Assembly (NCBI GenBank): GCA_036502765.1
Contig: DASXXX010000031.1
Location: forward strand, 56,696 to 120,695
Source: Acidimicrobiia bacterium
Lineage (GTDB): Bacteria > Actinomycetota > Acidimicrobiia > IMCC26256 > DASPTH01
DNA length: 64,000 nt
Reading direction: 5' to 3'
The notes beneath the pieces were generated by a model, which saw nothing but the letters and a program-made list of their open reading frames with translations, had not been told where the DNA came from and ran no database searches. Both the position numbers and the translations under genes were made by a program. Shown piece by piece: positions 7,553-51,575 of the stretch. Position 1 is the stretch's first letter. Every line of letters begins with the position of its first letter.

Positions 7553-8707
7553 TCAGCGTCCGCGTAGCCAGTCCTGGATGACGGCGTCGGTGTCGGCACC
7601 GAGTGCGGGACCGTTCGACGGGACGCGGAGCGGCGTAGCGAGCAGGTGCGGCGCGGGGGATGGGACGCGGAGGACACCGCTCTCGGGATCGTGGACCGTT
7701 GTGATGCTCGACCGTGCGCGCACCTGCGGATTCGCGTAGAGCCCCGCGATGTCTTGCACTTCGGTGACCGGAACTCGCGCATCGACGAGGGCGGTGACGA
7801 CGGTCGCCAGTTCGTGGCGGGCGACCCAGCCCGCGACCGCAGCATCGAGCTCATCGGCGTTCGCGTTCCGGTCGATGGCAGTGGCGAAGCGTTCGGTGCT
7901 TTCGTGGTTCGCGTCGATGACACTGAGCAACCTCGCCACCTGAGAGTCGGTCGGCCCTGAGATCACGACCCACCGGTCGTCGCTCGTCCGGTAGACGTTG
8001 CGAGGCGTGGCGACAGGTATCCGACTCCCCGTGCGACCCGGAGCAGGTTCGCCCGGTGACCAGGTGGCCATGGCCGGTCCGAGGAGTTGCAACACCGCTT
8101 CGTAGATCGACGCGTCGACGAACTGTCCCGTTCCGCCACGGGCGTCGCGCCAGTACAGGGCTGCGAGGACGCCTTGGAATCCGAAGCAGGCACCGAGATA
8201 GTCGCCGATCGGTACCGAGGACAGGATCGGCGGCCCGTTGGCTTCGCCCGTCATGTGCGTCAGACCTGCGAACGCCTCGAGCACCGTGCCGGTACCGGGT
8301 CGTTCGGCGTATGGTCCGTCGGCGCCGTATCCGCTCACGAGCACGACGACCGCGCCCGGATTGCGTTCGGCGATTGCCTCAGCGCTGCACGCCCACCGTT
8401 CGAGCACGTGCAAGGGCTGGTTCAGTACGACGACGTCGGCCACCTCGGTGAGGCGATGTACGAGCGCGAGGCCATCGGGGTCGTCGAGGTCGGCAACGAG
8501 CGACCTCTTGTTCCGGTTGGCGAGCGACCAGATGGAGCTGCGCGTGCCGCGCATCGCACCGGTGACGCGGAGCGGATCACCGGTGGGGGGTTCGACCTTG
8601 ACGACGTCGGCGCCGAGGTCGCCGAGCATCGCGGCGAGCATCGGGCCGGGCAGAAGTGTGGAGAGGTCCAGGACGCGCACACACTCCAGCGCGCGGGGAG
8701 CATTCAC
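7553..8707 (-). CDS. Family III (CaiB/BaiF) CoA-transferase
   Basis: N-terminus ...VRVLDLSTLLPGPMLAAMLGDLGADVVKVEPP. I trimmed the start to GTG 8707 because the upstream 83 codons of the ORF are Arg-rich and cross a hairpin plus an AT-rich island. Confidence 0.85.
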   Translation of the reverse strand: MNAPRALECVRVLDLSTLLPGPMLAAMLGDLGADVVKVEPPTGDPLRVTGAMRGTRSSIWSLANRNKRSLVADLDDPDGLALVHRLTEVADVVVLNQPLHVLERWACSAEAIAERNPGAVVVLVSGYGADGPYAERPGTGTVLEAFAGLTHMTGEANGPPILSSVPIGDYLGACFGFQGVLAALYWRDARGGTGQFVDASIYEAVLQLLGPAMATWSPGEPAPGRTGSRIPVATPRNVYRTSDDRWVVISGPTDSQVARLLSVIDANHESTERFATAIDRNANADELDAAVAGWVARHELATVVTALVDARVPVTEVQDIAGLYANPQVRARSSITTVHDPESGVLRVPSPAPHLLATPLRVPSNGPALGADTDAVIQDWLRGR

Positions 8708-8879
8708 GATCGCCGGGTCCGAGTGATCGCTGATTCCATCCGTGGTCGGCCGACGCTGCGACGGCAGCGCGTGCGAGAGTATGCGACTGAACAAGAGTAG
8801 TGCAGTTGTGTATGTCGCTCGACCTGCGACAACACCCGCGTCGACATTCCGTCGGCCATGCGATGACCGGGTGACGAAC

Positions 8880-8919
8880 GGAGGAGGATCGGCCCAGGGG
8901 GGTGTGCCGATCCTCCTCC
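8880..8919 (-). terminator. Strong hairpin downstream of the amidohydrolase/NTF2 operon
   Basis: Perfect 14-bp stem GGAGGAGGATCGGC / GCCGATCCTCCTCC with a 12-nt loop, 65 nt after the NTF2-like stop. There is no U-tract. Confidence 0.5.
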
Positions 8920-8983
8920 GTCGAACGCAGCGATGCCCGGGGCGAACCCCAGGCATTGCCGCGAATCCTCGTCGCCTGAGCCG

Positions 8984-18605: not shown

Positions 18606-18768
18606 GGGATCCCCCGGGATCGTCGCCGCATGGACGGTAACACAGCAAGTGCACAGTCGTATTGCCCCCACCGTGGTCCGAGGGCTCTCATCTGATTGCC
18701 GGCGTTCCCCGAGGACGACCGTCCACGACGCTACGGTGACGACCGGCCGACGGCATGGGACGGAAGTG

Positions 18769-20591: not shown

Positions 20592-20602
20592 GGCCGTGGT
20601 CC

Positions 20603-22300: not shown

Positions 22301-24556
22301 TTGTTCCGTCCGATGGGGCCGACACCTTTTCTCTCCGGCCTGTCCGTGCTCGAGTTCGGCGACGGCGTCGCGGGGGCGGTCGCCGCCGGCACGCTCGCAC
22401 TGCTCGGGGCCGACGTCACCAAGGCGATCGAAGATCCACCCCGGCTCGCCCGCCACCAGCCGATGTTGGATCACGTCGGCGTTCCGCCCTGGCCCTTGCT
22501 GCCGTCGGTGCTCGACCGTTCGAAGCGACTCGTCGCGGCCGACGATCCGCGAGTGCACAACCTCTCGATCACCGCCGACATCGTCATCGACGACCGTGTC
22601 GACGGCATCGACGACGCCGAGACGTATCTCCGGCGAGTCGGCGAACGCAACCTGTCGGTCTGGCTCACGATCTCGCCGTTCGGCCTGAGTGGTCCTCGAA
22701 CTGCACGTCGAGGAGGTGAGCTGATCGCGCAGGCGGCGGGTGGTCTCCTTTCGACCATCGAACCCGTCGGTGGCGGGCGCCCGACGTCGCCGCCAGGGTT
22801 CGTCGCATTGCGCGCCGTCGGCCATGTTGCCGCGTTGGCGGCACTCCACGGGATCGACCGGTTCCGTGGCGACGGCTGCCCAACGCACGTCGATGTGTCT
22901 GCACAAGAAGCGGTGGTCTTCACGGGCGCGCTCCCGGAGTGCGCACACCTCTTGTTCCGGTGTCCCGGGCGCGCCGGGAGCGGACGGTACGTCGCGCCGT
23001 CGGGTCTCTTCCCATGTCGCGACGGACTGGTGCGCATTGCCGCCATCGAGGACCACCAGTGGAAGGGCATGGTCGCATGCCTCGGCACTCCCACCTGGAC
23101 CGAGGGCCTCGAGACCCGCCCGGCCCGAGCCGAGCACGCCGCGATGATCACCGAGCGGGTTGGCGAATGGAGCGCGCAGCAACGCAAGGCCGAATGCGCG
23201 GATCTCCTCCAGCGCAACGGTGTGCCGTCGACGCCGGTGAACGGTCCTGACGAACTGCTGACTTCGACGCAGTTCCAGAGCCGCGGGTTCCTGGTGCAAA
23301 CCGACGTCGACGGCGTGCGCGCGACGGTTCCCGGAGCGCCGTGGGTCGTGACGACGGTGGACCCCGCCCGTCGGGTGGGGCCGGCATCGCAGACTCCCGT
23401 GCCGCCACGGCTGGCGGGCCTCCGTGTGACCGAGCTCACGCACGTGCTCGCCGGTCCCATCGTCGGCTCCCTGCTCGGCGCGATGGGCGCCGACGTCGTT
23501 CGCCTCGAAGACGAACGTCGCCTCGACATCTACCGTCGAACCGGACCCTTCGCCGAAGGAGTCGCCGGCGTCGAACGAGGTGCCTACTTCGCGGCCGCGA
23601 ACTTCTCGAAGCGCAGCGTCGTGGCGGGCGCCGAAGAGATGGACGCCGCCGTCGCGCTCCTCCTGGACCGCACCGACGTCGTCATCGAGAACATCGGCCG
23701 TTCCCGCCTCGAGCGACTCGGTGTGCTCCCGGAGAAGGTGACGCACGAACACGACGCCCTGTTCCTGCACGTCTCCGGGTTCGGTACCGATGGACCCCTC
23801 GCCGAGTACCGCGTCTACGCGAACAACGTGCAGGCGTACGGAGGTCTCGCTCACCTCACCCGGGATGCACAGGGCGAGCCGGCACACCTGGCGACGGTGC
23901 TGGCCGACCCGCTCTCTTCGGTCGTGGCGGCAACGGCCGTCGCGGCGTGGGCGCTCGGACCTCAACGGGGTACGGGCGTCGACGTCGACCTGTCGATGGC
24001 CGAAGTGGTCGCGAGTCTGCTCGGCGAGTTCGTCGCCGAAGCATCCGCCAGCCGGAGTGTCACGGTGCCACTCGGAAACACGCTCGCACCGTTCTCGCCC
24101 CACGGTGTCTTCGCGTCTCGTGACGAGCGTTGGTTCGCGGTGGCGGTGCAGGCGGACGACGAATGGCGTCGCCTCGTCGACGCCCTCGACCACCCACCCG
24201 AGTTGACCGAGTCCAGATGGAATCGCGAGCCCGAACGATGGCGCGAACGCGACGTGATCGAGCGATGTCTGGCCGACGTGATCGCTCGATGGGACGCCGA
24301 CGCGCTCGACGAGGTGCTTGCCGCGGCCGAGGTGCGCGCGGCGGCGGTGCATCGTGCAGTCGACCTCCTCGCCGACGACCATCTCCGCGACCGGGGCTTC
24401 TTCCCGGCGTTCGCCCATCCCGACCCGGATCTGCACGATGCCCGCCTCGTCGGCATGCCGTGGCGCCTGGTGGGGGAGGGTCCTCTTGCGCAGGGCGCGC
24501 CTCCGCATCTTGGCGACGCCAACGCCGACTTCGACGTGAACGGGATGAGACGGTGA
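22301..24556 (+). CDS. Tandem two-domain family III (CaiB/BaiF) CoA-transferase fusion
   Basis: 751-aa ORF with two complete N-terminal signatures. The first is LSGLSVLEFGDGVAGAVAAGTLALLGADV (aa ~11). The second is LAGLRVTELTHVLAGPIVGSLLGAMGADVVRLE (aa ~371, nt ~23410). An alternative start exists at ATG 22313. Confidence 0.85.
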   Translation: MFRPMGPTPFLSGLSVLEFGDGVAGAVAAGTLALLGADVTKAIEDPPRLARHQPMLDHVGVPPWPLLPSVLDRSKRLVAADDPRVHNLSITADIVIDDRVDGIDDAETYLRRVGERNLSVWLTISPFGLSGPRTARRGGELIAQAAGGLLSTIEPVGGGRPTSPPGFVALRAVGHVAALAALHGIDRFRGDGCPTHVDVSAQEAVVFTGALPECAHLLFRCPGRAGSGRYVAPSGLFPCRDGLVRIAAIEDHQWKGMVACLGTPTWTEGLETRPARAEHAAMITERVGEWSAQQRKAECADLLQRNGVPSTPVNGPDELLTSTQFQSRGFLVQTDVDGVRATVPGAPWVVTTVDPARRVGPASQTPVPPRLAGLRVTELTHVLAGPIVGSLLGAMGADVVRLEDERRLDIYRRTGPFAEGVAGVERGAYFAAANFSKRSVVAGAEEMDAAVALLLDRTDVVIENIGRSRLERLGVLPEKVTHEHDALFLHVSGFGTDGPLAEYRVYANNVQAYGGLAHLTRDAQGEPAHLATVLADPLSSVVAATAVAAWALGPQRGTGVDVDLSMAEVVASLLGEFVAEASASRSVTVPLGNTLAPFSPHGVFASRDERWFAVAVQADDEWRRLVDALDHPPELTESRWNREPERWRERDVIERCLADVIARWDADALDEVLAAAEVRAAAVHRAVDLLADDHLRDRGFFPAFAHPDPDLHDARLVGMPWRLVGEGPLAQGAPPHLGDANADFDVNGMRR

Positions 24557-29634: not shown

Positions 29635-29755
29635 GCGTCCTCTGCGTGCTCGAACCGCTGTCGACCGCGACAGCCGGTGCCTTCGCGTTCCGTGGTCATG
29701 GCCCCCCAGCGCATCGACGCAGGTGTTCGCAATCATGTCGCGACGAGGCGCAACA

Positions 29756-29801: not shown

Positions 29802-30881
29802 TCAGCGATTCCGGAGCCAGTCCGCCACCGCGTCCCGGTGGCCGCCACGCCCACCGAGCAGCGCGGCAAGGACGGCGGCGCGGCGAAGGAACACGTGCGC
29901 GACGTGCTCCCACGTGTACCCGATGCCCCCGAAGACCTGGATCACGCCCTCCGGCACCGACCTCAAGGAATCCACGGCCCAGAAGGCCGCCAAGGACGTC
30001 AGCGCCGCGGCATCCGCCGCTTCTGACTCCACTGCGACCGCGGCACGCGCGACGAGTGCGCGGCTGACCTCGATGGCCGCCCGCTGGTCCACGAGTCGGT
30101 GCTTGATCGCCTGGAACGAACCGATCGGGCGATCAAACGCCACGCGGTGCTTCGCGTAGTCGACGCCGAGGGCATTGGCGCCGGCCGCAACGCCCGTCAG
30201 CTCGGCGGCCCATCCGAGGGTGAGCCGCTGCATCGTTGCCGCCCATCGGTCGACGGCTTCGTCGCCGAAGGCAATGACCTCGTCGTCGGAGGCCGTCACG
30301 TCATGGAGCTCGAGCGAGACGCTCGGCATCGCGTCGAGCGGGCGGAGCTCGGAGCGCTCGACGCCGATGGACTCGGTGGCGATCTGGAGGAGCGTCGCCG
30401 TGCCGTCTGGTCGCCGGGCGTGCACCAGCATTCGTTCGGCGACGTCGCCGTAGGGCACGAACCCATGTGACCCGGACACCACGACCTTGGCGCCTGCTTC
30501 GAGCGTCGCGGGTGTCGGCGACGGGACGGGGACGATCCCGACGGTTCCTTCCGTCTGGGGTCGTCCGGTGCACCAGTTCCCGACGGCGACGGGCACAAAG
30601 GGGATCGGCGCCGTCGACGCGCCGATGGACTCCGCGATCACGCAGAGGTCCGGCACGGTCCCCCCACCGTCTTCGGCCTCGAGCAGGATGTCGGCCCATC
30701 CGAGTCCGGCAACGGTGTGCCAGAGACCGACAGCCCAGGTCGGCGCCTCCGCGTCGAGCAGGTCGCGCGAGCGGTCCGCGGACCACTCCCGCGCGAGGAC
30801 GTCGTCGGCCATGGTTCGCACCGCGGTGAGATGCTCGGCCGCGTCGGCAAGCGCGAGGAGAGAAGCCGAGTCAGCGGTCAC
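29802..30881 (-). CDS. Acyl-CoA dehydrogenase family protein, beta-like partner subunit
   Basis: 359 aa, shorter and divergent, with an ACAD C-terminal helical-domain-like sequence (FQAIKHRLVD...). Its GTG start overlaps the end of the upstream ACAD by 11 nt. Confidence 0.8.
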   Translation of the reverse strand: MTADSASLLALADAAEHLTAVRTMADDVLAREWSADRSRDLLDAEAPTWAVGLWHTVAGLGWADILLEAEDGGGTVPDLCVIAESIGASTAPIPFVPVAVGNWCTGRPQTEGTVGIVPVPSPTPATLEAGAKVVVSGSHGFVPYGDVAERMLVHARRPDGTATLLQIATESIGVERSELRPLDAMPSVSLELHDVTASDDEVIAFGDEAVDRWAATMQRLTLGWAAELTGVAAGANALGVDYAKHRVAFDRPIGSFQAIKHRLVDQRAAIEVSRALVARAAVAVESEAADAAALTSLAAFWAVDSLRSVPEGVIQVFGGIGYTWEHVAHVFLRRAAVLAALLGGRGGHRDAVADWLRNR

Positions 30882-32115
30882 GGGGAAGTCCGAGGAGCTT
30901 TTCGCCGATCACGTTGCGCTGGATCTCGGAGGTGCCTGCGCCGAGTGTTGCGGCCCGCATCAGCAGGTAGCTCTTGGCGACGTTGCCTCCCTTGGCGGCT
31001 CCGTCGGAACCCCGTTGCAGCGTGCCGCTGACGCCTGCCATCTCCAGCCCGAAGTTGGCCATCGCCTGGTCCACCTCGGACGTCAGCAGCTTCGCGACCG
31101 AGGCTTCGGGTCCCGGAGCCGTGCCGCGAACGCCGGCGGCGGTTGCCTGCGCTGATATCTGGCGCAACGCCTCGACTTGCGCGGCGAATCGCACGAGGTG
31201 GTCGAGCGTCCACGGGTCGTCCATCGGGCAACTCCCGTCGGCTGCCGGGTCGGTTGCCGGCTCGGTTGCCATGGCGAGGAGGATCGCGAGTCGTCGTTCG
31301 ATCCGGTGCGTCCGACTCTGGCCGACGCGTTCGTATCCGAGCGTCGAGTTCGCGACCCGCCATCCCGCATCCACCGGACCGACGACGTTGGCGAGTGGCA
31401 CACGGACGTCGGTGAAGAACACCTCGTTGAACTCGGCGGTTCCGGTGATCTGGCGGATGGGGCGGATCTCGATGCCCGGTGTGCGGAGGTCGACGAGGAG
31501 GAAGCTGATGCCTTCGTGCTTGGGCGCGTCCGGATTCGTGCGGGCGAGGATGTAGATCCAGTCCGCGTACTGCGCCTTCGACGTCCAGATCTTCTGCCCG
31601 TTCACGAGGAAGTGGTCGTCGACGAGCTCCGCGCGGGTGCGCAGCGATGCGAGGTCACTCCCGGCGTCCGGCTCGCTGAACCCCTGGCACCAGACGTCAG
31701 CAGCGTTCAGGATCCGAGGGAGGTAATGCGCACGTTGCGTGTCGTCGCCCCACTGGATGATGGTCGGACCGAGCTGGTTGACGGCGCTGCGGTTGATCGC
31801 ATCCGGTGCGCGGTGGCGAGCAAGCTCCGCATTGAACACCAGCTGTTGCACGACCGTCGCGCCTCTCCCTCCGTGGACGACCGGCCAGCTCACCGCCGCG
31901 AGTCCCGCCGCATGGAGACGCCTCTGCCACTCGCGCAGCAACGCGACACGCTTGGCTTCGGATCGCTCCCGACTCGCGCTGACCAGCTCCGATGTCAGCT
32001 CGGTCTCGAGGAACGCGAGCACCTCGTTCCGAAACTCGCGGTCTTCCGGCGCGAGAGGAACGCCGAAGTCGTCGACGTCGCGACGGGACCCACCGGCGCG
32101 AGATCCGACCGTCAC
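30871..32115 (-). CDS. Acyl-CoA dehydrogenase, alpha-like subunit
   Basis: QGFSEPDAGSDLASLRTRAE, FLVNGQKIWTSKA, LGYERVG and C-terminal GAGTSEIQRNVIGEKLLGLPRD. Confidence 0.9.
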   Translation of the reverse strand: MTVGSRAGGSRRDVDDFGVPLAPEDREFRNEVLAFLETELTSELVSASRERSEAKRVALLREWQRRLHAAGLAAVSWPVVHGGRGATVVQQLVFNAELARHRAPDAINRSAVNQLGPTIIQWGDDTQRAHYLPRILNAADVWCQGFSEPDAGSDLASLRTRAELVDDHFLVNGQKIWTSKAQYADWIYILARTNPDAPKHEGISFLLVDLRTPGIEIRPIRQITGTAEFNEVFFTDVRVPLANVVGPVDAGWRVANSTLGYERVGQSRTHRIERRLAILLAMATEPATDPAADGSCPMDDPWTLDHLVRFAAQVEALRQISAQATAAGVRGTAPGPEASVAKLLTSEVDQAMANFGLEMAGVSGTLQRGSDGAAKGGNVAKSYLLMRAATLGAGTSEIQRNVIGEKLLGLPRDR

Positions 32116-32180
32116 GTTCCTTCCGACGACGTGCTCGTGCTTTCGAGCGCCACGTCGGAAGGGTCGGGAGCCATGGCGGT

Positions 32181-32212
32181 ACTGTATGACATCTCATGTA
32201 CAGAAGTACAGT
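32181..32212. promoter_or_regulatory. 32-bp AT-rich divergent promoter/operator element (copy 2)
   Basis: ACTGTATGACATCTCATGTACAGAAGTACAGT is 27/32 identical to 10867-10898. It contains the 12-mer TATGACATCTCA, which is also present as its reverse complement at 62146-62157. Confidence 0.55.
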
Positions 32213-32242
32213 GCGGTGGCGCCAAGCGAATGCTGCGGAGGA

Positions 32243-33133
32243 ATGCTCGTGGCCGACCAGGACGAGTTCGAGATCGACGAAGACTGGGTGCTCTACGACG
32301 TCGTCGCGCCACACATCGCTCGCATCACGATCAACCGGCCCGAACGTCGGAATGCGATCCTCTCGCCGGACATGCACGGGTTGTTCGAGGATCGCCTGCG
32401 CCGAGCCGAGAACGACGACGACATCAAGGTCGTCCTCCTCACGGGCGCCGGATCCGACTTCTGCGCCGGCGACGACGTGCGTCGCCTCCCCGTCGAGCGA
32501 GCCGGCCTCGAGAGGGGCTCGAAACTGCCCCAGACCGCCAGGATCGCCAACGCCCGGCGTCTCCACCGCCACCTGACCAACTGGCTGGAGTTTCCCAAGA
32601 CCGTGATCGCCGTCTGCCAGGGCACGACGCTCGGGGCCGGCTTCAACCTCGTGCTCGCTGCGGACCTCGTCATCACGGCAGAAGGAGCCACCTTCGGCCG
32701 CCCGCAGGCGCGGATCGGCTTCGCCGGCTTCAGCACCGCGATGCCGCTCGTCCTGTTGAAGCTGGGTCCGAACCGCGGGTACGAAGCGATGATCACCGGT
32801 CGACGCATCACGGCCGAAGAGATGCGGGACTGGGGCGTCGTCTCATCGATCGTTCCGGCCGCCGACCTCGAAGCAGAAGCGATGCGCTACGCGCAGGCGA
32901 TCGCTCACCATTCCGCCGACGGGCTGATGATCGGGAAGCAGGCGCTCATCACCTTCTGGCACGGCGTCGGCATGGCCGAGTTCGGCGACTGGGTGCAGAT
33001 GGCGCACCCGCTGTTCACGAACCTCGTCTGGCGCGATGACGAGTTCAACTTCTTCAAGGAACGGGGCGAGCGTGGCGCCAAGGGCGCGCTCACCGAGTTG
33101 CAGCGCCGCTATGCGGAGTGGGGCTTCGAGTAG
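32243..33133 (+). CDS. Enoyl-CoA hydratase/isomerase (crotonase fold)
   Basis: ARITINRPERRNAI ... VVLLTGAGSDFCAGDD. ATG 32243 directly follows GGAGGA, so the start is uncertain by a few codons. Confidence 0.85.
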   Translation: MLVADQDEFEIDEDWVLYDVVAPHIARITINRPERRNAILSPDMHGLFEDRLRRAENDDDIKVVLLTGAGSDFCAGDDVRRLPVERAGLERGSKLPQTARIANARRLHRHLTNWLEFPKTVIAVCQGTTLGAGFNLVLAADLVITAEGATFGRPQARIGFAGFSTAMPLVLLKLGPNRGYEAMITGRRITAEEMRDWGVVSSIVPAADLEAEAMRYAQAIAHHSADGLMIGKQALITFWHGVGMAEFGDWVQMAHPLFTNLVWRDDEFNFFKERGERGAKGALTELQRRYAEWGFE

Positions 33134-33167
33134 CGGCGGCGCCGCGACCTCATCTGTGATACACAAC

Positions 33168-33184
33168 AGAACACATAGTGTTCT
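33168..33184. promoter_or_regulatory. Perfect 7-3-7 inverted repeat, candidate TetR-type operator
   Basis: AGAACAC-ATA-GTGTTCT lies in an AT-rich patch 28 nt upstream of ATG 33212. The same GAAC-N7-GTTC architecture occurs at 56134-56148 and 57286-57300. Confidence 0.5.
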
Positions 33185-33211
33185 ACTGATTCAACGAGGG
33201 AGCACTGCGAC

Positions 33212-34117
33212 ATGGGGTTACTCACAGGACGCACCGCGGTCGTCACCGGGGCCGGACGTGGGATCGGTGCAGCCGTGGCCGTCGGCCTGGCGGCAGAGGG
33301 GGCATCGGTCCTCGTGTCCGACGCCGGGGTCGGAGTCGACGGGACCGGCTGCGACGCCGGACCGGCCGAAGCAACCGCAGCGCTCATCACTGCAGCAGGC
33401 GGCATCGGAGTCGCCGACGCGACCGACGTCACCGACTTCGACGCGTGCGGTCGCTTGATCGAACGCGCAGTCGGAGAGTTCGGACGGCTCGACATCCTTG
33501 CGAACGTCGCCGGGATCCTGCGCGACAGCATGATCTTCAAGATGCACGAGAGCGACTGGGACGCCGTCATCGACGTGCACCTCAAGGGCACGTTCAACAC
33601 GACGCGACATGCGTCGCAGTGGTGGCGCGAGCACCGGGGCGGTCAGTACCGCTTGATCAACTTCACCTCGTTGTCCGGGTTGCAGGGCGCGCCGAGTCAG
33701 CCGAACTACGCCGCCGCGAAGCTCGGCATCGTCGGCCTCACCTACTCGTGCGCCAACAGCCTCCGCAACTATGGAGTCACTGCCAACGCGGTCGCTCCCG
33801 TCGCGGGGACGCGCATGACCCAGGGCATCGGAAGTGGACGCGCGAGTCTCGACTACTCGGCCGAAAACCCGCGGCTTGCGCCTGAGAACGTCGTACCGCC
33901 GGTGCTCTACCTCGCGTCGGAGCGTTCAGAGTGGCTGAATCGGCGGATCATCTTCGCCGGCAACGGGCGCATCTCCCTGTTCTCGAATCCGGTCGTCGAG
34001 CGGGAGATCGTCTCCGAGTCCGGCACGTGGGACAACGAGACGGCGTTCGCCGAGATGGAGGAGTCGTTCAAGAGCGCGATCCTGTGGCCGAACTTCTTCG
34101 ACAAGCCCCGCGACTGA
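33212..34117 (+). CDS. SDR resembling the dehydrogenase domain of MFE-2/17beta-HSD4-type (3R)-hydroxyacyl-CoA dehydrogenases
   Basis: TAVVTGAGRGIGAAVA, AGILRDSMIFKMHESDWDAVIDVHLKGTFNTTR and YAAAKLGIVGL. Confidence 0.8.
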   Translation: MGLLTGRTAVVTGAGRGIGAAVAVGLAAEGASVLVSDAGVGVDGTGCDAGPAEATAALITAAGGIGVADATDVTDFDACGRLIERAVGEFGRLDILANVAGILRDSMIFKMHESDWDAVIDVHLKGTFNTTRHASQWWREHRGGQYRLINFTSLSGLQGAPSQPNYAAAKLGIVGLTYSCANSLRNYGVTANAVAPVAGTRMTQGIGSGRASLDYSAENPRLAPENVVPPVLYLASERSEWLNRRIIFAGNGRISLFSNPVVEREIVSESGTWDNETAFAEMEESFKSAILWPNFFDKPRD

Positions 34118-34121
34118 CGCC

Positions 34122-35354
34122 ATGGGTGCGTTGGACCACATCCGCATCTGCGACTTCGGCGGACAGCTCGCCGGAGCCGGTGCGACGAAACTGCTCGCCG
34201 CGTTCGGCGCCGAAGTGATCCGCGTCGAGGATCCGACCACGCAGGGACGCTGGGACATGATGCGCGTGGTCGGGCCGTACGTCGACGAACGTCGCGGTGT
34301 CGATCTCGGCGGCGGCTTCAACAACCACAACGTCAACAAACTCGGCGTCACGATCAACCTCCGCGCGCCGGAGGGTCCTGCCCTGCTGGAGAAGCTGCTC
34401 GCGGTGTGCGACGTCGTGACCGAGAACTTCGCCGCCGGAGTCCTCGACCGTCTCGGATTCGGCTACGAGGCACTCGCCGCCATCAAGCCCGACATCATCT
34501 ACGTCTCGAATTGCGGATTTGGCCACACCGGTCCCCACAGATCCTTCAAGACCTGGGGGCCCGTCGTGCAGGCGGTCAGCGGACTGACGTTCAACAACGG
34601 ACTTCCCGACGAGGAACCCGCGGGCTGGGGCTTCTCGTACATGGACCACGGCGCCGCGGGGTTCATGGCGATCGCCATCCTCGCCGCGCTGCATCACCGC
34701 GAGGTCACGGGCGAGGGACAGTGGGTCGACCTCGCGAGCACCACCGCGGGCATCACGATGCAACGCACCGCCGTCCTCGACTGGACCGTCAATGGCCGGC
34801 CGTCGCGACGCCCCGGGCAACCCAACGGCAACCACGCCGACTTCGACGCGATGGCACCTCACAACATCTACGCCGCGCTCGGCGACGACCGATGGGTCGC
34901 GCTCGCTTGTCGTGACGACGACGACTGGCGGGCGCTCTGCGACCTCGTCGACGACGACGATGCGCGTGCCGGCCGATTCTCGGGCCTCGCGGGCCGACTC
35001 GAACACCAGGACCAGCTCGACGAAATCATCGGGCGCTGGGTCGGCGGGCGTGAAGCCGGCGCCGCCGCGAGCGAGCTCGTCGCTGCGGGCGTTCCTGCCA
35101 GCGTCGTGAAGAGCCCTCGCGAACGGATCGACGAAGATCCCGACCTCGACGCCTGGGGGCTCTTCCCGAGCGTCGACCATCCGTTGATGGGTGAGGTGCG
35201 AGTCGAGGGGGTTCCGCTCCACTTCTCGGAGACGGACTGGTCCATCGACAAGGCCGCGCCGCTCCTCGGTGAGGACAACGACCGGATCTTCCGCGAGCTC
35301 CTGGATCTCGACGGCGCCGAGCTCGAACGCCTGCGATCCGAAGGGGTCGTATGA
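34122..35354 (+). CDS. Family III CoA-transferase (type A partner)
   Basis: IRICDFGGQLAGAGATKLLAAFGAEVIRVEDP, and later VSNCGFGHTGP and SYMDHGAAGFMAIAILAAL. Confidence 0.9.
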   Translation: MGALDHIRICDFGGQLAGAGATKLLAAFGAEVIRVEDPTTQGRWDMMRVVGPYVDERRGVDLGGGFNNHNVNKLGVTINLRAPEGPALLEKLLAVCDVVTENFAAGVLDRLGFGYEALAAIKPDIIYVSNCGFGHTGPHRSFKTWGPVVQAVSGLTFNNGLPDEEPAGWGFSYMDHGAAGFMAIAILAALHHREVTGEGQWVDLASTTAGITMQRTAVLDWTVNGRPSRRPGQPNGNHADFDAMAPHNIYAALGDDRWVALACRDDDDWRALCDLVDDDDARAGRFSGLAGRLEHQDQLDEIIGRWVGGREAGAAASELVAAGVPASVVKSPRERIDEDPDLDAWGLFPSVDHPLMGEVRVEGVPLHFSETDWSIDKAAPLLGEDNDRIFRELLDLDGAELERLRSEGVV

Positions 35355-36607
35355 GCTCCCTCTCCGGCCTCCGCGTGCTCCAACTCGTCGACGAGCGCAC
35401 CGTGGACGCCGGACGCATCCTCGCCGAGCTCGGAGCCGAGGTCGTTGTCGTCGAACCCGCCGGTGGTTCGCCGCTTCGCGACGAACCACCGTTCGTCTCC
35501 GATGAGCCAGGGCCTGAACGCAGTCTTCGCTGGTGGGCCGGAGCGGCTGGGGCCCGCAGCATCGAGCTCGACCTCGAGGGCGACGGGCTCGCCCTGTTCG
35601 ACGCGCTCCTCGACGCCAGCGACCTCGTGCTCGAGGGTCGCGGGCACGCGCTCGACGCGGTCGACGCCGGCTGGGACGCCCGCGGACGAACGCGGCCGTC
35701 GCTCATCTGGGTGTCGATCACGCCGTTCGGACGCAACAGCGTCCGTGCCGACGATCCTGCCACCGACCTCACGCTGCTCGCGGGCGGCGGACCCGTCTGG
35801 AACTGTGGCTACGACGACCACTCGATTCCGCCCATGCGCGGCAAAGGCAACCAGGCCTACAACATCGGTGCGATGTATGCGGTCATCGGAGCGCTGACCG
35901 CACTTGCGCACCGAGATCGGACCGGCCGTGGTCAGCTCGTCGACGTCAACATCAACGCCGCGTGCAACGTCACCGCAGAGCACGTCACGTACAACTGGCT
36001 GGTCGTCCAGAGTGTGATGAGCCGCCAGACCGGCCGACATGCCAGCTCCGCACCCACCGCCCCCGTGCAGGTCCGCTGTGCGGACGGCCGTTATGCAACC
36101 ACGGGTGTCCTGCCGAGATCTCCTGCGGAGTTCGGGCGGTTGCGGGCATGGCTCGACGAGCTCGGGCTGCTCGACCGTCTCCCCGAGGCCGTCTTCCTGG
36201 ATCTGGCGGCACGGCGCACGGAGACGGTCGAGATGGTCGATGTCGCCAGTGATCCGGAAGTTGCCGCCATTCTGGCTGCCGCGAGAGACGCAATGACCCT
36301 CATCGCCTCCGAACTCCCCGCCTACGACTTCTACGTCGCCAGTCAGCAGCACGGGTTCCCCTGCGGCGCGGTCGTCTCACCCGACGAAGCGTTCGAGGAT
36401 CCGCAGTTCGCCGCCCGTGGATTCGTTCACGAGGTCGATCATCCGGAACTGGAGCGGCCGTACCGCGCACCGGGCGTGGCGTACGTCTTCAGTGCGAGTC
36501 CGTGCCCGGCACCCGAGCGTGCTCCGCTCCTGGATGAACACCGCGACGAGTTGCTCGGTTCGATGCTCACGCGAGAGGACGAACGTTGGATCCGTCGCCA
36601 GCGATGA
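35351..36607 (+). CDS. Family III CoA-transferase (type B partner)
   Basis: The ATG overlaps the upstream stop (ATGA). LRVLQLVDERTVDAGRILAELGAEVVVVEP, then ITPFG...ATDLTLLAGGG. Clearly divergent from its neighbour. Confidence 0.9.
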   Translation: MSSLSGLRVLQLVDERTVDAGRILAELGAEVVVVEPAGGSPLRDEPPFVSDEPGPERSLRWWAGAAGARSIELDLEGDGLALFDALLDASDLVLEGRGHALDAVDAGWDARGRTRPSLIWVSITPFGRNSVRADDPATDLTLLAGGGPVWNCGYDDHSIPPMRGKGNQAYNIGAMYAVIGALTALAHRDRTGRGQLVDVNINAACNVTAEHVTYNWLVVQSVMSRQTGRHASSAPTAPVQVRCADGRYATTGVLPRSPAEFGRLRAWLDELGLLDRLPEAVFLDLAARRTETVEMVDVASDPEVAAILAAARDAMTLIASELPAYDFYVASQQHGFPCGAVVSPDEAFEDPQFAARGFVHEVDHPELERPYRAPGVAYVFSASPCPAPERAPLLDEHRDELLGSMLTREDERWIRRQR

Positions 36608-37053
36608 ATGCGGACGACAACCGCTTCACGCACGTGGGGTTGTGTGTCTCAGACCTCGACCGTTCGGTCACGTACTACTGCGACGTGCTCGGCTTCACCG
36701 AGGTCGCGCGCCGCTTGAACGTCACCGATGACGGCTCGGCCCGCCTCCTCGGACTCTCGTCGCTGGACGTGGAGCTGGTCTACCTGCAGCGAGATGGAAT
36801 CCGCATCGAACTGCTCTGGTACCGCGTGCCGGGCCACGACGGAGACGGGTCGCCGCGGCAGATGAATCTCCTCGGCCCCACCCACCTCGCGTTCCGCGTC
36901 GGCGACTTCGACGAGCTCTGCCAGAAGATCGAAGCCGCAGGTGGTTCGGTGCTGCCACAGACGATGACGACGTTCGGCTATGGCAACCGCGGCGTCATGA
37001 CCCTCGATCCGGACGGCATCCGCGTCGAGCTCATCGAACGTCCGCAGTCGTGA
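36604..37053 (+). CDS. VOC-family protein (glyoxalase/epimerase/dioxygenase fold)
   Basis: FTHVGLCVSDLDRSVTYYCDVLGF ... GPTHLAFRVGDFDELCQKIEAAGG. ATGA overlap with the upstream stop. Confidence 0.8.
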   Translation: MNADDNRFTHVGLCVSDLDRSVTYYCDVLGFTEVARRLNVTDDGSARLLGLSSLDVELVYLQRDGIRIELLWYRVPGHDGDGSPRQMNLLGPTHLAFRVGDFDELCQKIEAAGGSVLPQTMTTFGYGNRGVMTLDPDGIRVELIERPQS

Positions 37054-37529
37054 CTGCAGGACCGCAGCGCATGACGCTCGACGACGGGTCGTACCGGCCC
37101 GTACCCGCGATCAACGACCGCGACGCTCCGTATTGGACAGGAGGCGAACGCGGTCAACTCATGTTGCAGCGGTGTCGCAGTTGCGACCACGTCATCCACC
37201 CACCGGTCCTGCTGTGCCCCTGGGACCGTTCGCCAGACCTCGAATGGGAGGCGATGAGCGGGCGGGCCACGGTCGAGTCGTTCACCGAGAACCTGCACCC
37301 GTTCCTGCCCGGCTTCCCCGTACCGTCCGTCATCGCCCTCGTCGATGTCGAGGAGGATCCCACCGCGCGCATCCTGACCAACCTGATCGAGGTCGACGCC
37401 GCCGACGTGGCCATCGGCATGGCTGTCGAGGTCGTGTTCCAGCGACTCGAGTCCGACGACGGTCCCGACGTGTACCTCCCGCTGTTCCGGCCGCGTGGTC
37501 CCGTGACCGCCACTCACGGGGGAGACTGA
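37050..37529 (+). CDS. DUF35 OB-fold/zinc-ribbon protein
   Basis: PYWTGGERGQLMLQRCRSCDHVIHPPVLLCPWD is followed by an OB-fold-like ATVESFT...VIALVDVEEDPTARILTNL. GTGA overlap with the upstream stop. Confidence 0.85.
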   Translation: MTAGPQRMTLDDGSYRPVPAINDRDAPYWTGGERGQLMLQRCRSCDHVIHPPVLLCPWDRSPDLEWEAMSGRATVESFTENLHPFLPGFPVPSVIALVDVEEDPTARILTNLIEVDAADVAIGMAVEVVFQRLESDDGPDVYLPLFRPRGPVTATHGGD

Positions 37530-37530
37530 C

Positions 37531-38718
37531 GTGGTCGATCGCTTCGAACCCAAGGTGATCGTCAGCGGCATCGGCCAGTCACAGGTCGCACGCCGCATCG
37601 GTCGCGACCCGCTGCTGCTGACCGCCGATGCCTGCCTCGCCGCCATCGCCGATGCCGGGCTCGAGCCCGGCGCCATCGACGGCCTCAGCACCTACCCCGG
37701 TTCCAGCCAACCCGGCCCCGGCTTCAGCGGAGGCTCGATCCGCGAGGTGCACGACCTCCTCGGCCTGCATCCGAGATGGGTGTCGGGCGGGATCGAGCTC
37801 CCCGGCCAAGCGGGCGCAATCGTCAACGCCATGCTGGCCGTCGCCGGTGGAATCGCCGACCACGTGCTCTGCTGGCGCAGCATCTGGGAGGGCACTGCGC
37901 AAGGCAGCGGCGGCCGCAAAGGGTACGGCGCGGGCGCCAAGCGGGTCGACGGAGTTGCCGCATGGGAGCTGCCGTACGGCGTGACTGCACCGTCACTCGC
38001 GGCGATGCACATCCGCGCTCGGATGGACCGCTACGGCCTGACGCGCGAGCAGTTGGGCGCGGTGCCGATCGTGACGCGCGCGAACGCGGGCCTCAATCCG
38101 AACGCCGTGTACCGCGATCCGTTGACCCTCGAGGACTACCTCAACGCGCGCATGATCTCCTCGCCGTTGTGCCTCTTCGACTGCGACGTCCCGTGCGACG
38201 GCGCAACCGCATTCGTCATCTCGCGCGCGGAGCACGCCACGTCTCTTGACCATGCCGCGATCGGGGTCGAGGGCGTGAGCTGCGCACACGACGATCGATT
38301 CATCTGGCAATACGGCCAGGACATCACCCGCATCAGTTCGCGGTGGGCGAGCGACGTCTGGGAACACACGACGCTCACGCCCGCCGATGTCGACGTCGCA
38401 CAGCTCTATGACGGCTTCAGCATCATCACCCACTGTTGGCTCGAGGACTTCGGGTTCTGCGAAGTCGGCGAAGCCGGAGCGTTCGTCGAGGGCGGCACGC
38501 GGGTGGCCCGCGACGGGCAACTCCCGGTCAACACCGGCGGTGGGCAGTTGTCGGGAGGTCGTCTCCACGGGTTCGGCTTCCTCCACGAGGCATGTCTCCA
38601 GTTGCGCGGTGAGGGAGGCGACCGCCAGGTCGCCGGCGACCCTGAGGTTGCTGCGGTCGGCGTCGGAGCAGGGAACAGTGGCACGACCGCGATGCTCGTC
38701 ACGCGCGGCATTCGATGA
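37531..38718 (+). CDS. Thiolase-superfamily protein (Ltp/SCP-x-like), nucleophile Cys apparently absent
   Basis: 395 aa with N-terminal VIVSGIGQSQVARR. The region where thiolases carry the Cys reads IELPGQAGAIVNAMLAVAGG. Located 1 nt downstream of the DUF35 gene. Confidence 0.85.
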   Translation: MVDRFEPKVIVSGIGQSQVARRIGRDPLLLTADACLAAIADAGLEPGAIDGLSTYPGSSQPGPGFSGGSIREVHDLLGLHPRWVSGGIELPGQAGAIVNAMLAVAGGIADHVLCWRSIWEGTAQGSGGRKGYGAGAKRVDGVAAWELPYGVTAPSLAAMHIRARMDRYGLTREQLGAVPIVTRANAGLNPNAVYRDPLTLEDYLNARMISSPLCLFDCDVPCDGATAFVISRAEHATSLDHAAIGVEGVSCAHDDRFIWQYGQDITRISSRWASDVWEHTTLTPADVDVAQLYDGFSIITHCWLEDFGFCEVGEAGAFVEGGTRVARDGQLPVNTGGGQLSGGRLHGFGFLHEACLQLRGEGGDRQVAGDPEVAAVGVGAGNSGTTAMLVTRGIR

Positions 38719-39548
38719 ACACGAGAGAGGACAAGACCATGAAGGTCGATTTCTCCGGTAGGACCGCGGTGGTCACGGGCGCGGCGAGCGGTCTCGGCCG
38801 ATGTGTCGCCGAGCTCCTCGCGGACAGCGGAGCGCGGGTGATCGGTTTCGACGTCTCGCCCGTCGACGCCGCCGGCATCGACGGTCGCCGGGTCGACATC
38901 GGGGATCCCGACTCGATCGATGACGCGATCCGCAATCTCGACGGGCCCGTCGATGTGCTGTGCAACATCGCGGGTCTGCCCCAGACCAAGCCTGCGCTCG
39001 ACGTACTCCGAGTGAACTTCCTGGGCCTTCGCCATCTCACGGAATCGCTCGCGCCACTCATGGCTGCGGGCGGCTCCGTCACCAGCGTCTCCTCGAACGC
39101 GGGGAACGGTTGGCCGACGCGCCAGCCGCCGCTCGAGGCCGTGCTCGCGACCGGCGACTTCGCCTCTGGTCTCGAGCAACTGGAAGGGGTCGTCGGGGAT
39201 GCCGGCGATTCGTACATCTTCTCGAAGGAACTCGTGCAGCTGTACACCCTGCGTCGCTCGCACACGCTCTTCCGAGAGCGCGGCGTCCGAATGAACAGCG
39301 TGTCGCCGGGGGAGATGGAGACGCCGATGATGGCGGAGTTCCGCAAGGCGACGAGTGACAAGGTGATCGATGCGGTCGCGCAATCCGCGGCACTCGGACG
39401 TGCCGCGTCACCCGAAGAGGTCGCGCCGTCAGTCGTGTTCCTGGCGAGCGACCTTGCCGGCTTCTGTTGCGGGGCCATCTTCGATGTCGACGGTGGTTAC
39501 ACCGCGGCGCAGTTGACCGACCAGATCGATTTCTCGCGGTTCGCATGA
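38715..39548 (+). CDS. Short-chain dehydrogenase/reductase (SDR)
   Basis: TAVVTGAASGLGRCVA and YIFSKELV. ATGA overlap with the upstream stop; an alternative start exists at ATG 38739. Confidence 0.85.
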   Translation: MNTREDKTMKVDFSGRTAVVTGAASGLGRCVAELLADSGARVIGFDVSPVDAAGIDGRRVDIGDPDSIDDAIRNLDGPVDVLCNIAGLPQTKPALDVLRVNFLGLRHLTESLAPLMAAGGSVTSVSSNAGNGWPTRQPPLEAVLATGDFASGLEQLEGVVGDAGDSYIFSKELVQLYTLRRSHTLFRERGVRMNSVSPGEMETPMMAEFRKATSDKVIDAVAQSAALGRAASPEEVAPSVVFLASDLAGFCCGAIFDVDGGYTAAQLTDQIDFSRFA

Positions 39549-41805: not shown

Positions 41806-42990
41806 ATGGCTGACACCTTGAGCTACACGCCGTATTCGCGGGCGATCTTCGAGGATCCCTATCCCGTGTACCGGCGATTGCGGGACGAAGCACCGGTGTA
41901 CCGGGATCCCGACGGTCGCTGGTGGGTCATCTCGCGCTTCGACGATGTCTTCGAGGCACTGCGCGACTGGCAGACGTTCACGTCGGATCGTGGCCCGGCA
42001 CCCGAGAACCCCGATCGCGGCGGCGAGAAGTATTCGATCGTGTCGATGGACCCACCCCGACACGACGTGGTCCGAGGGATGCTCAATCGACTCTTCACGC
42101 CGAGAGCGGTCGAGGCGATGGACGACGCGTTGCGCACGATCGTGCGCGCGCACATGGATTCGCTCGAGCGCGGCACCACCGTTGAAGCGATGTCCGCGTT
42201 CGCCTTCAACATCCCCACCGATGTCATCGGAGACCTCCTCGGTGTACCGGCAGCAGATCGCGGCAAGCTCCGCGAGTGGTGGGAGCTCTTCCTCTCCCGC
42301 GACGACCAGACGGTTGCGCTCCCGCGCCGGGCGATCGACGCGAGCCGCGAGATCAGTGCCTACATCGGCGCCCTGATCGAAGAGCGGCGAACGGCACCGG
42401 GTGACGATCTCATCAGCCGTGTCCTCGCCGCGCAGTACGACGACCCCGCGTTGGGTGCGGTGTCGCTCTCACCGAACGAGGTGCTGATGTTCTGCAACCT
42501 CCTCTCGGCGGCCGGCTCGGAGACGACCCAGAAGTTGCTGTCGAACTCGTTGGTCGCACTCGACCAGCACCGTGAGCAATGGGATCTGTTGTGCGCGCAG
42601 CCCGCGCTGATCCCCCAAGCTGTCGACGAAGCACTCCGGTACGACTCGCCCACCCACTGGGTGGCCCGGAGCACCACACGCGACGTCGAAGTCGCGGGCA
42701 CGATCGTCCCCGAAGGAGATTGGGTGCTGTTGCTCCTCGGGAGCGCGAACCGCGACGAACGCCAGTACGAGGACCCCGACGACTTCATCGTCGAGCGGGC
42801 CCGTCGGCAGACCGTGTTCTTCGGGTGGGGTCGCCACGTGTGCCTCGGGCAGTGGCTGGCGCGCCGCGAGGCGGCCATGGTCCTCGAGGAGGTGACACGG
42901 CGCTTCCCCGGCTACAGCATCGGGGAGTGCGAACGGAAGCTGACTGCGACCGTGCGTGGCTACACGAGCGTCGAGATGACCTTGCGCTGA
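41806..42990 (+). CDS. Cytochrome P450
   Basis: FGWGRHVCLGQWLARRE heme motif and LLSAAGSETT I-helix. Confidence 0.9.
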   Translation: MADTLSYTPYSRAIFEDPYPVYRRLRDEAPVYRDPDGRWWVISRFDDVFEALRDWQTFTSDRGPAPENPDRGGEKYSIVSMDPPRHDVVRGMLNRLFTPRAVEAMDDALRTIVRAHMDSLERGTTVEAMSAFAFNIPTDVIGDLLGVPAADRGKLREWWELFLSRDDQTVALPRRAIDASREISAYIGALIEERRTAPGDDLISRVLAAQYDDPALGAVSLSPNEVLMFCNLLSAAGSETTQKLLSNSLVALDQHREQWDLLCAQPALIPQAVDEALRYDSPTHWVARSTTRDVEVAGTIVPEGDWVLLLLGSANRDERQYEDPDDFIVERARRQTVFFGWGRHVCLGQWLARREAAMVLEEVTRRFPGYSIGECERKLTATVRGYTSVEMTLR

Positions 42991-42994
42991 TCGA

Positions 42995-43795
42995 TCACGG
43001 CTCGAACACGCCGGGGGCGCTCGAGTAGTCGATTGCGGAGAGCTCCGTGAGGCCGCCGTCCGCGTGCATCACGGTGCCGGTCACGAACGCCGAGTCGTCG
43101 CTGGCGAGAAACGCGACCACCGGCGCGATCTCCGCGTCGGGATCCGCGCCGCGGCCCATCGGTGAGAGGTCGGCGGTCCGCGTGTAGTTGTCGAGCTCGG
43201 TGCCGATCATCCCCTGCTGGACCTCGGTGAGCGCGAACGGGCACATCGCATTGACGCGAACGTTCTGTCGTGCCCACTCGTTCGCCGCGACTCGGGTGAT
43301 GGCATGGATCGCGCCCTTCGCCGCTGAGTACGGCGCGGTGTACCGAATGCCGGCGAGCGCGGATCCCGACGTGAAGTTGATCACGGATCCGTGCCCGCTG
43401 TCGCGGAGGAACGGGAACGCGAGTTGCATGAATCGGAAGCTCGCGCGGGGTCCGGTGGACTCCGACAGCTCCCAGTCCTTCATCGAGACGACCTCGAAGG
43501 CCTTCGCGGGTGCGAAGTACTGGGCGGTGTTCACGAGCACCGCGAGGCCACCACTCCATTCCGCCGCGGTCTCCACCGTGCGCTGGATGGCGTCGTCCTT
43601 GGCGACGTTCGCCTGGACGAACTGGGCGTTGCCGCCTGCGGCCTCGATCTGGGCGACGCACTCGTTGCCCTTGTCGACGTTGATGTCGGCGACGGTCACG
43701 ATCGCACCCTCGGCGGCGAGCCGCTTCGAGATCGCCCGACCGAGGCCTTGGCCCCCACCGGACACCAGCGCCCCTCGTCCGCTCAGACGTTCCAT
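42995..43795 (-). CDS. Short-chain dehydrogenase/reductase (SDR)
   Basis: GALVSGGGQGLGRAIS and YSAAKGAI. GGAGG Shine-Dalgarno upstream of ATG 43795. Confidence 0.9.
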   Translation of the reverse strand: MERLSGRGALVSGGGQGLGRAISKRLAAEGAIVTVADINVDKGNECVAQIEAAGGNAQFVQANVAKDDAIQRTVETAAEWSGGLAVLVNTAQYFAPAKAFEVVSMKDWELSESTGPRASFRFMQLAFPFLRDSGHGSVINFTSGSALAGIRYTAPYSAAKGAIHAITRVAANEWARQNVRVNAMCPFALTEVQQGMIGTELDNYTRTADLSPMGRGADPDAEIAPVVAFLASDDSAFVTGTVMHADGGLTELSAIDYSSAPGVFEP

Positions 43796-43809
43796 GCTGA
43801 CCTCCGTCG

Positions 43810-43846
43810 GTACAAATGATCAATGGTTGTTCTATCATGCAGGTAC
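43810..43846. promoter_or_regulatory. AT-rich island between divergent SDR and hydratase genes
   Basis: GTACAAATGATCAATGGTTGTTCTATCATGCAGGTAC contains the inverted repeat ATGAT...ATCAT and a TATCAT hexamer (43833-43838). Confidence 0.3.
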
Positions 43847-43907
43847 GACCTCGCACCGGGTCGGCGGACGCGAAGCGAGGGTCCCACGAGGACCAGGACG
43901 GGACGCC

Positions 43908-51407: not shown

Positions 51408-51504
51408 GTGGCGACCCCTTCTGATCGATGGCGCGTCTGATCGATCGCGCGGTCGTTCGGTTTCGCCTTGCGGCGACGCCTCACGATACTGCATGATCGG
51501 ACAG

Positions 51505-51514
51505 TTGACGTCAA
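51505..51514. promoter_or_regulatory. Perfect 10-bp palindrome in a divergent intergenic region
   Basis: TTGACGTCAA is flanked by imperfect extensions (ACAG..CTGT). It lies between the LLM gene (start 51407, minus strand) and the MaoC gene (start 51576, plus strand). Confidence 0.35.
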
Positions 51515-51575
51515 TCTGTTCCATCGGGCGACGAGCGTGTTCGTCGCCTGCGCCGGCTCATCAGGAGGCAATCGA

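Follow-up and report, generated by a model that had tools for sequence, protein, structure and literature searches.

Probable heteromeric, BbsEF-type family III coenzyme A-transferases with one catalytic aspartate per subunit pair in an Acidimicrobiia bacterium

We analyzed the family III coenzyme A (CoA)-transferase genes in a 64,000-nucleotide stretch of DNA from an Acidimicrobiia bacterium (GenBank assembly GCA_036502765.1, contig DASXXX010000031.1, positions 56,696 to 120,695 of the forward strand; G+C content, ~67%). This whole stretch is referred to as the window, and genes are named by their first coordinate within it. A Pfam scan identified exactly five CoA_transf_3 (PF02515) domains in four genes, and a six-frame hidden Markov model (HMM) scan of the 64-kb window found no family III gene beyond these five domains. 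The PF02515 scores were 314 bits for 34122, 168 bits for 35351, 344 bits for 7553, and 365 bits, in two stretches, for a protein in which two such domains are fused (gathering score cutoff, 23.3 bits). We use "F-like" for the Asp-bearing sequences (34122 and the C-half of the fusion) and "E-like" for the Asp-less ones (35351 and the N-half of the fusion), and we count residues of the fusion from the Met at 22313. The features are as follows.

34122..35354, + strand: F-like, predicted catalytic (BbsF-like) subunit, 410 amino acids (aa), PF02515 match over the full length
34644-34646, + strand: Asp175, predicted nucleophile of 34122, in the motif SYM[D]H
35351..36607, + strand: E-like, Asp-less (BbsE-like) partner subunit, 418 aa, PF02515 match
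35351..35354, + strand: ATGA, in which the stop codon of 34122 overlaps the start codon of 35351 (gtcgtATGAgc)
35765-35767, + strand: Asp139 of 35351, at the Glu140 position by alignment
35858-35860, + strand: Tyr170 of 35351, at the catalytic Asp position in the NQAY motif (NQA[Y]N)
22301/22313-24556, + strand: fusion of two CoA_transf_3 domains, 747 to 751 aa
22313..23380, + strand: N-half of the fusion, Asp-less, with ENF replaced by IDD
22718-22720, + strand: Glu136 of the N-half, at the Glu140 position by alignment
22808-22810, + strand: Leu166 of the N-half, at the Asp position (FVA[L]R)
23381..24556, + strand: C-half of the fusion, predicted catalytic, with an ENIG motif and Ala at the Glu140 position
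23906-23908, + strand: Asp532 of the C-half, predicted catalytic Asp (VLA[D]P)
7553..8956, - strand: stand-alone family III CoA-transferase, PF02515 match
8201-8203, - strand: predicted catalytic Asp of 7553 (PIG[D]Y), with Gly at the Glu140 position

The ATGA overlap appears to indicate translational coupling of 34122 and 35351, and the gap between the corresponding genes was -3 nt (measured from the HMM envelope) in 28 of 75 related loci, which fits such a stop/start overlap. For the fusion, the list of open reading frames (ORFs) gives a TTG start at 22301, while the 747-aa database copy of the protein begins at the Met at 22313. In 7553, the PF02515 match starts only at residue 91 of the listed ORF, and the first ~88 residues of that ORF are probably not translated. 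No partner gene was found for 7553, whose neighbors encode an alpha/beta hydrolase and a SnoaL-like protein; presumably, it forms a homodimer.

We compared these sequences with solved structures using HMMER, with Escherichia coli formyl-CoA transferase (Frc; YfdW), YfdE, and CaiB, whose catalytic Asp169 has been described (PMC9196870), using MAFFT, and with each other by profile-profile alignment using hhalign (29 E-like versus 19 F-like sequences). In the MAFFT alignment, the Asp169 column was occupied by Asp in 34122, the fusion C-half, and 7553, by Tyr170 in 35351, and by Leu166 in the fusion N-half. Profile-profile alignment paired Asp175 of 34122 with Tyr170 of 35351 and Gly146 with Asp139. 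A pairwise HMMER alignment of 35351 with Oxalobacter formigenes Frc placed Ala169 rather than Tyr170 in the Asp column, a shift of one residue. Thus, by every alignment method used, the nucleophile position of 35351 and of the fusion N-half was non-acidic. An earlier reading of the window made from the letters alone (the sequence-only reading) had proposed precisely this distribution of the catalytic Asp, i.e., present in three domains and missing from two. The motif strings that it quoted are all found where it placed them, its assignments were borne out by the HMMER, MAFFT, and hhalign alignments, and profile alignment with Frc, YfdE, CaiB, and the solved structures revealed no Asp conserved across all five domains. 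Its statement that each pair has one Asp-bearing member holds for 34122/35351 and for the two halves of the fusion but does not extend to 7553, which is not part of any pair. With an Asp169 equivalent taken as the mark of a catalytically competent family III transferase, 34122, the fusion C-half, and 7553 would qualify, and 35351 and the fusion N-half would not; the latter two are members of the fold family, but to list them as transferase active sites would be wrong.

At the position of Frc Glu140, the distribution is reversed, with Asp139 in 35351 and Glu136 in the fusion N-half versus Gly146 in 34122, Ala in the fusion C-half, and Gly in 7553. The same reading had singled out this acidic residue as something that the Asp-less members carry instead. 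The residue is indeed present in both, but it is apparently the family default (Glu in Frc and Asp in YfdE), which the Asp-less halves retained and the catalytic halves lost, and is therefore not special to the Asp-less members.

To describe conservation, we used four sets of sequences: the best 120 relatives of 35351 (identity of at least 54%); the best 120 relatives of 34122; a genome scan that yielded 80 E-like loci, 75 of them with upstream DNA and the other 5 cut by a contig end; and the family of the window fusion, comprising 112 full-length homologues. The loci of the genome scan span about six phyla (Actinomycetota, Chloroflexota, Pseudomonadota, Myxococcota, Gemmatimonadota, and Opitutales). 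None of the 120 relatives of 35351 had an acidic residue in the Asp169 column, which held Ala, Ser, Tyr, Val, Phe, or Leu, and all 120 had Asp in the Glu140 column; the E-like genes of the genome scan behaved identically (0 of 80 and 80 of 80, respectively). The relatives of 34122, in contrast, all had Asp in the Asp169 column and Gly in the Glu140 column (120 of 120 for each), as did the F-like genes of the scanned loci (Asp in 74 of 74 and Gly in 73 of 73). Within the fusion family, Asp532 was present in all 112 members, and the equivalent site of the N-half was Leu, Ser, or Met (0 of 112 acidic), with Glu136 in 111 of 112. Single E-like proteins among the best 150 representatives of a broader search (described below) also lacked acidic residues at positions -12 to -6 around the site (0 of 82) and had the consensus Gln-Ala-Tyr there. 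This pattern of presence and loss is far beyond chance.

The residues that contact CoA follow the same division. In MCT, the pantetheine forms a hydrogen bond with Asn100, and the largest contribution to binding comes from Phe101, which stacks on the adenine (PMC9196870). Asn100 and Phe101 correspond to the Asn and Phe of ENF, a motif that is invariant in F-like sequences and lost from E-like ones. The motif lies at residues 101 to 103 of 34122, and both it and Trp139 (Trp145 in 34122 numbering) are invariant in the 34122 family (120 of 120 homologues). In 35351 it has degenerated to LEG-R, and there is a one-residue deletion in the xxGP loop; its relatives likewise have a degenerate ENF and, in every case, the loop deletion. 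The ENF Asn column thus holds Gly, Ser, or Ala in E-like sequences and Asn in every full-length F-like sequence. The Glu-Asn of ENIG was found in at least 110 of the 112 members of the fusion family. From the loss of the Asn-Phe contacts on one side and the invariance of ENF on the other, we infer that each E-F pair has one canonical site.

Rates of change also differed between the two types. In 59 of 59 genomes, the F-like orthologue was more conserved than its E-like partner (61.9% versus 52.3% identity to the window proteins), and in the split pair the large domain of the E-like protein was far more variable than that of the F-like protein (entropy of 1.24 versus 0.71). By default, the large domain is conserved in this family and the small domain is variable (PMC9196870). 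In the fusion family, the C-half followed that default (entropy of 1.03 for the large domain and 2.04 for the small domain) and the N-half reversed it (1.60 and 1.07, respectively), which supports a single site per fusion protein.

Genomic arrangement ties the two types together. An Asp-bearing partner gene lay directly upstream of the E-like gene, on the same strand, in 75 of the 75 loci with upstream DNA. To gauge the size of the clade, we exhaustively searched representative sequences of 50% identity clusters and obtained 13,807 representatives at an E value of ≤1e-3 and 534 at ≤1e-30. Among the best 150 representatives, 65 were fusions of ~800 aa, and in 61 of these 65 the N domain was Asp-less and the C domain Asp-bearing. 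The clade is very large, ancient, and phylogenetically broad, and many of its best matches are fused. The remaining fusions (P0254, P0345, P0372, and P0379) comprise one in reverse order, with the Asp-bearing domain first, and three in which automatic alignment found the Asp in neither half; misalignment or a complete lack of catalysis could account for these. Taken with the reversed domain conservation of the N-half, the natural fusions lend indirect support to a physical α2β2 E-F heteromer, as far as sequence comparison can indicate. In a separate observation, the fusion and the F/E pair of mycobacterial loci (L006 to L035) are separated by an additional single CoA_transf_3 gene that is encoded on the other strand and matches both profiles weakly (~50 and 72 bits), as exemplified by L021 6154-7674 (- strand).

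The closest solved structures of the pair are two different chains of one enzyme, the Thauera benzylsuccinate CoA-transferase BbsEF (PDB 9fn0 and 9fol). BbsEF is reported to be an α2β2 enzyme, and its entries contain four chains, A to D. The best match of 34122 was 9fn0_B (E = 1.8e-54; 34% identity), with 187 to 188 bits versus 85 to 88 bits for 9fn0_A (E = 4.7e-24). For 35351, the best match was 9fn0_A (E = 3e-35; 33% identity), with 124 to 126 bits versus 57 bits for 9fn0_B (E = 2.4e-14), and a Foldseek search with an AlphaFold2 (AF2) model of 35351 ranked 9fn0_A and 9fol_A first. The fusion C-half was likewise closest to 9fn0_B (E = 1.8e-34; 124 bits). The title of 9fol names a "D178-CoA adduct." As read from HMMER alignment coordinates, position 178 holds the Asp of NYT[D178]H in chain B, where it pairs with Asp175 of 34122, and Ala in chain A, whose motifs NQAYR and GSDLT match NQAYN and ATDLT of 35351. 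With Asp178 in chain B and Ala178 plus NQAY in chain A, the closest solved homologue shows the same asymmetry as the window pair. The sequence features that mark a BbsEF-type enzyme, namely, adjacent co-oriented paralogues, each nearest to a different chain, with the Asp in one subunit type, were all found.

We conclude that 34122 and 35351 together, and likewise the N- and C-halves of the fusion at 22313-24556, probably form BbsEF-type heteromeric family III CoA-transferases with one canonical site per E-F pair. The sequence-only reading had proposed heteromers with a single functional site per pair, and the BbsEF matches, the shared asymmetry, the 75 of 75 pairings, the fusions, and the lost CoA contacts all speak for it. 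The proposal is well supported but not new, since the BbsEF arrangement was already known. The BbsEF structures were released in December 2025, and a literature search of a limited collection found no paper describing the BbsEF structure or the Asp asymmetry.

The enzyme can be pictured as follows. The Asp of family III enzymes forms anhydride and aspartyl-CoA intermediates (PMC9196870, PMC9813914). Family III chains interlock in pairs, and here the F-like chain would provide the CoA-binding large domain and the Asp nucleophile. This Asp would attack the thioester of the donor acyl-CoA to give an acyl-aspartyl anhydride and then aspartyl-CoA, from which CoA would pass to the acceptor acid. The E-like chain, with neither the Asp nor the Asn-Phe, would be incapable of canonical chemistry in its own pocket but would be kept as the indispensable second half of the interlocked dimer, its small domain probably contributing to the F pocket. 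The product would most likely be a carboxylic acid activated for the adjacent dehydrogenase/hydratase/short-chain dehydrogenase/reductase (SDR)/thiolase module, and by analogy the donor may be succinyl-CoA. The AF2 monomer model of 35351 was of moderate confidence (predicted local distance difference test [pLDDT] score of 76), with pLDDT below 50 for exactly residues 138 to 165 (window positions 35762-35845). This fits an interface segment that becomes ordered only with the partner at the dimer core. A lid motif, RQTGRHA (residues 225 to 231 of 35351), was modeled with low to moderate confidence, residues 227 to 229 being below 50, and both elements may be partner-dependent parts of the interface.

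Several observations weigh against this interpretation. The identity of residue 178 in the two BbsEF chains was read off the HMMER alignment rather than the deposited structure coordinates. The sequence of the fusion N-half has diverged so far that it cannot, taken singly, be assigned to the BbsE lineage: phmmer gave an ambiguous 51 versus 49 bits against the two BbsEF chains, although the N-half family profile was nearer to the E-like than to the F-like profile (hhalign scores of 228 versus 155). A reciprocal pattern of conservation, with the E small domain conserved and the F small domain variable, was also expected in the split pair, but it was significant in the fusion family only. In the split pair, the large and small domains of the E-like protein had similar entropies (1.24 versus 1.29; p = 0.65), and the small-domain lid of the F-like protein was also well conserved. 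Since the domain contrast was not significant there, we did not use it as evidence for the split pair. Lastly, residues 138 to 165, a helix plus loop that would line the E-like protein's own pocket, are its most conserved segment (entropy of 0.39), and the chain keeps the Rossmann motif (GA..V.VE) and the Arg of GDxxR. The E-like pocket is thus not free to drift and may still have a non-catalytic function.

The alternative that draws on these last observations holds that the E-like pocket was repurposed as a second, non-canonical site that binds a free acid, CoA, or an effector, or that is catalytic through Asp139 or the YDD sequence, so that each pair would have two different functional pockets. 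We consider this unlikely, although it fares better than the other alternatives. The conserved lid of the F-like partner and the retained Rossmann motif and GDxxR Arg speak for such a site, and the Asp139 column is invariant not only in the relatives and the scanned loci but is also kept in 76 of 85 single representatives. Nevertheless, the adenine-stacking Phe and the pantetheine-binding Asn are gone, the xxGP loop is shortened in every member, and the E-like protein varies most in its first 135 residues. The matching pocket elements are highly variable in the fusion family, an acidic residue at the 140 position is no novelty in this family, the low pLDDT at residues 138 to 165 fits an interface segment, and the 9fol title names an adduct at D178 only. 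There is a small chance, too, that the invariant segment (TDLT..GP.WNCGYDDH..PP.RG) together with the Rossmann core and the lid of the partner could form a second pocket that sets the specificity of the single catalytic site or regulates it.

We regard as very unlikely a second alternative, in which 34122 and 35351 are independent, co-regulated homodimers, the former a normal transferase and the latter an enzyme with another chemistry, e.g., a racemase or isomerase. Family III does include non-transferases such as alpha-methylacyl-CoA racemase, which was among the PDB matches, and 35351 is under purifying selection across phyla. However, racemases keep the equivalent Asp as the catalytic base (Asp156 in Mycobacterium tuberculosis MCR), and CoA contacts have been lost from proteins of the 35351 type. 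Independent homodimers are also hard to reconcile with the pairing found in all 75 loci, with the stop/start codon overlap, with the abundance of covalent fusions of both types, and with the fact that a single complex supplies both of the closest solved homologues as its chains. It is scarcely credible that the loss of the Asp is an alignment artifact in which the nearby Asp155 or Asp156 of GYDDH fills the catalytic position in three dimensions: although the two subunits have loops of different length ahead of the helix and MAFFT and HMMER place the Asp column one residue apart, three alignment methods and an anchor-based window count agree that positions -12 to -6 are free of acidic residues in 82 diverse E-like proteins, the GxxD loop occurs family-wide alongside Asp169 in Frc, YfdE, and CaiB, and BbsE also has NQAY, with Ala as its residue 178.

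The heteromer favored here resembles BbsEF in having side-by-side paralogous family III subunits, one keeping the nucleophilic Asp and the other NQAY, and in having Asp at the Glu140 position of the E-type subunit and Gly in the F-type subunit. It differs in that the window proteins are only 33 to 34% identical to BbsE and BbsF, the F gene precedes the E gene, the proteins occur in Acidimicrobiia, mycobacteria, and others rather than in anaerobic toluene degraders, and a covalently fused version is present in the same window. With the homodimeric enzymes Frc/YfdW, YfdE, CaiB, SUGCT, and Mct, it shares the Pfam family, the fold, and the interlocked dimer, and 34122, the fusion C-half, and 7553 keep their Asp169-type nucleophile and ENF CoA contacts. 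The homodimers have two identical sites per dimer, whereas here one chain is without the nucleophile and the CoA contacts. PhtSa/PhtSb, another two-subunit family III enzyme, also has adjacent genes and is expected to assemble into a tetramer resembling BbsEF (bioRxiv 10.1101/2022.07.29.502009), but it acts in an aromatic, anaerobic pathway. A looser comparison is with the α2β2 acyl-CoA dehydrogenases ChsE1-E2/FadE28-29, IpdE1-E2, and PimCD, in which one of two paralogous subunits lost catalytic or cofactor features and the number of sites was halved. The sequence-only reading had drawn this parallel to the alpha/beta acyl-CoA dehydrogenases encoded next to the pair. It is fair as an analogy only: a large and small dehydrogenase pair does adjoin the transferase genes, but the fold and chemistry are unrelated.

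The consequences are mainly for annotation. Thousands of genes labeled "CoA transferase" or "carnitine dehydratase" would encode non-catalytic partners, or fusions with one active half; such misannotated genes occur in mycobacteria, Acidimicrobiia, Chloroflexota, and other groups, and the many mycobacterial orthologues widen the use of the correction. Asp-less partners should not be counted or expressed as independent enzymes, and characterizing the cluster described here requires that 34122 and 35351 be coexpressed. The pair is a clear example of subfunctionalization in an interlocked dimer, a principle already embodied in BbsEF; the value of the present comparison lies in extension and comparative support, not in discovery, and it will be useful to annotators without surprising a specialist. 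At JGI, many close homologues of 34122 from soil and actinobacterial metagenomes are labeled "benzylsuccinate CoA-transferase BbsF subunit" and their partners "CaiB-like." The former label is probably an over-specific transfer, and the latter hides a non-catalytic partner.

The transferase pair lies within a cluster that, according to Pfam and NCBIfam scans, is of the beta-oxidation type. Its genes, and those of the wider region, are as follows.

29802..39548, both strands: beta-oxidation-type cluster around the pair
30871-32115 and 29802-30881, - strand: large and small acyl-CoA dehydrogenase pair, divergently transcribed
31739-33133, + strand: enoyl-CoA hydratase
33212-34117, + strand: SDR
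36586-37053, + strand: VOC/glyoxalase-fold protein, between the transferase pair and the DUF35 gene
37050-37529, + strand: DUF35/ChsH2-type OB-fold protein
37531-38718, + strand: SCP2-type thiolase
38715-39548, + strand: SDR
14433-15710, 17394-18965, 19407-20717, and 41806-42990: four cytochrome P450 genes
50334-51524: luciferase-like monooxygenase
15741-17378, 44712-47033, and 48824-50326: three AMP-binding acyl-CoA ligases

The region at 29802-39548 mirrors parts of the bbs operon, i.e., the CoA-transferase pair, acyl-CoA dehydrogenase, hydratase, two SDRs, and DUF35 plus SCP2-type thiolase. However, its NCBIfam scores do not identify a benzylsuccinate CoA-transferase proper: the DUF35 protein scored 23 bits against the BbsA model (cutoff, 250) and the thiolase 78 bits against the BbsB model (cutoff, 750). 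With scores so far below the cutoffs, and with only 33 to 34% identity to BbsE and BbsF, the cluster is expected to serve a pathway other than bbs, with a substrate other than benzylsuccinate. The NCBIfam equivalog models for formyl-CoA, mesaconate, glutarate, and carnitine transferases all scored far below their cutoffs, so that no substrate can be assigned by that route. We also considered the two SDRs, 33212 and 38715, as a further catalytic/non-catalytic pair and rejected this, since both keep YxxxK.

The gene order of the cluster is fully conserved in a related metagenome-assembled genome (L003). In mycobacteria, a core of P450, F, E, VOC, P450, and acyl-CoA dehydrogenase genes is kept, with the fusion, a thiolase, and an acyl-CoA dehydrogenase pair nearby; a P450 gene directly flanks the F/E pair in the mycobacterial loci as well. 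The P450s, monooxygenase, and ligases around the transferases suggest that the region is a large island for the catabolism of a lipid- or terpenoid-like compound. This wider island also has branched-chain-type ATP-binding cassette (ABC) transporter genes. An ORF of 1,015 aa at 26689-29736 (- strand) joins branched-chain-amino-acid-type ABC permease domains to an ABC ATPase domain, and genes for periplasmic binding proteins lie elsewhere in the window, at 2937-4223 and 13062-14336.

Three of the listed ORFs, 31739-33133 (+ strand), 43188-44675 (+ strand), and 7553-8956 (- strand), probably extend too far at the 5′ end. The hydratase domains begin only at residues ~180 and ~255, and the long ORFs overlap genes on the opposite strand. 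The orthologue of the 31739-33133 hydratase in L003 is only 296 aa long.

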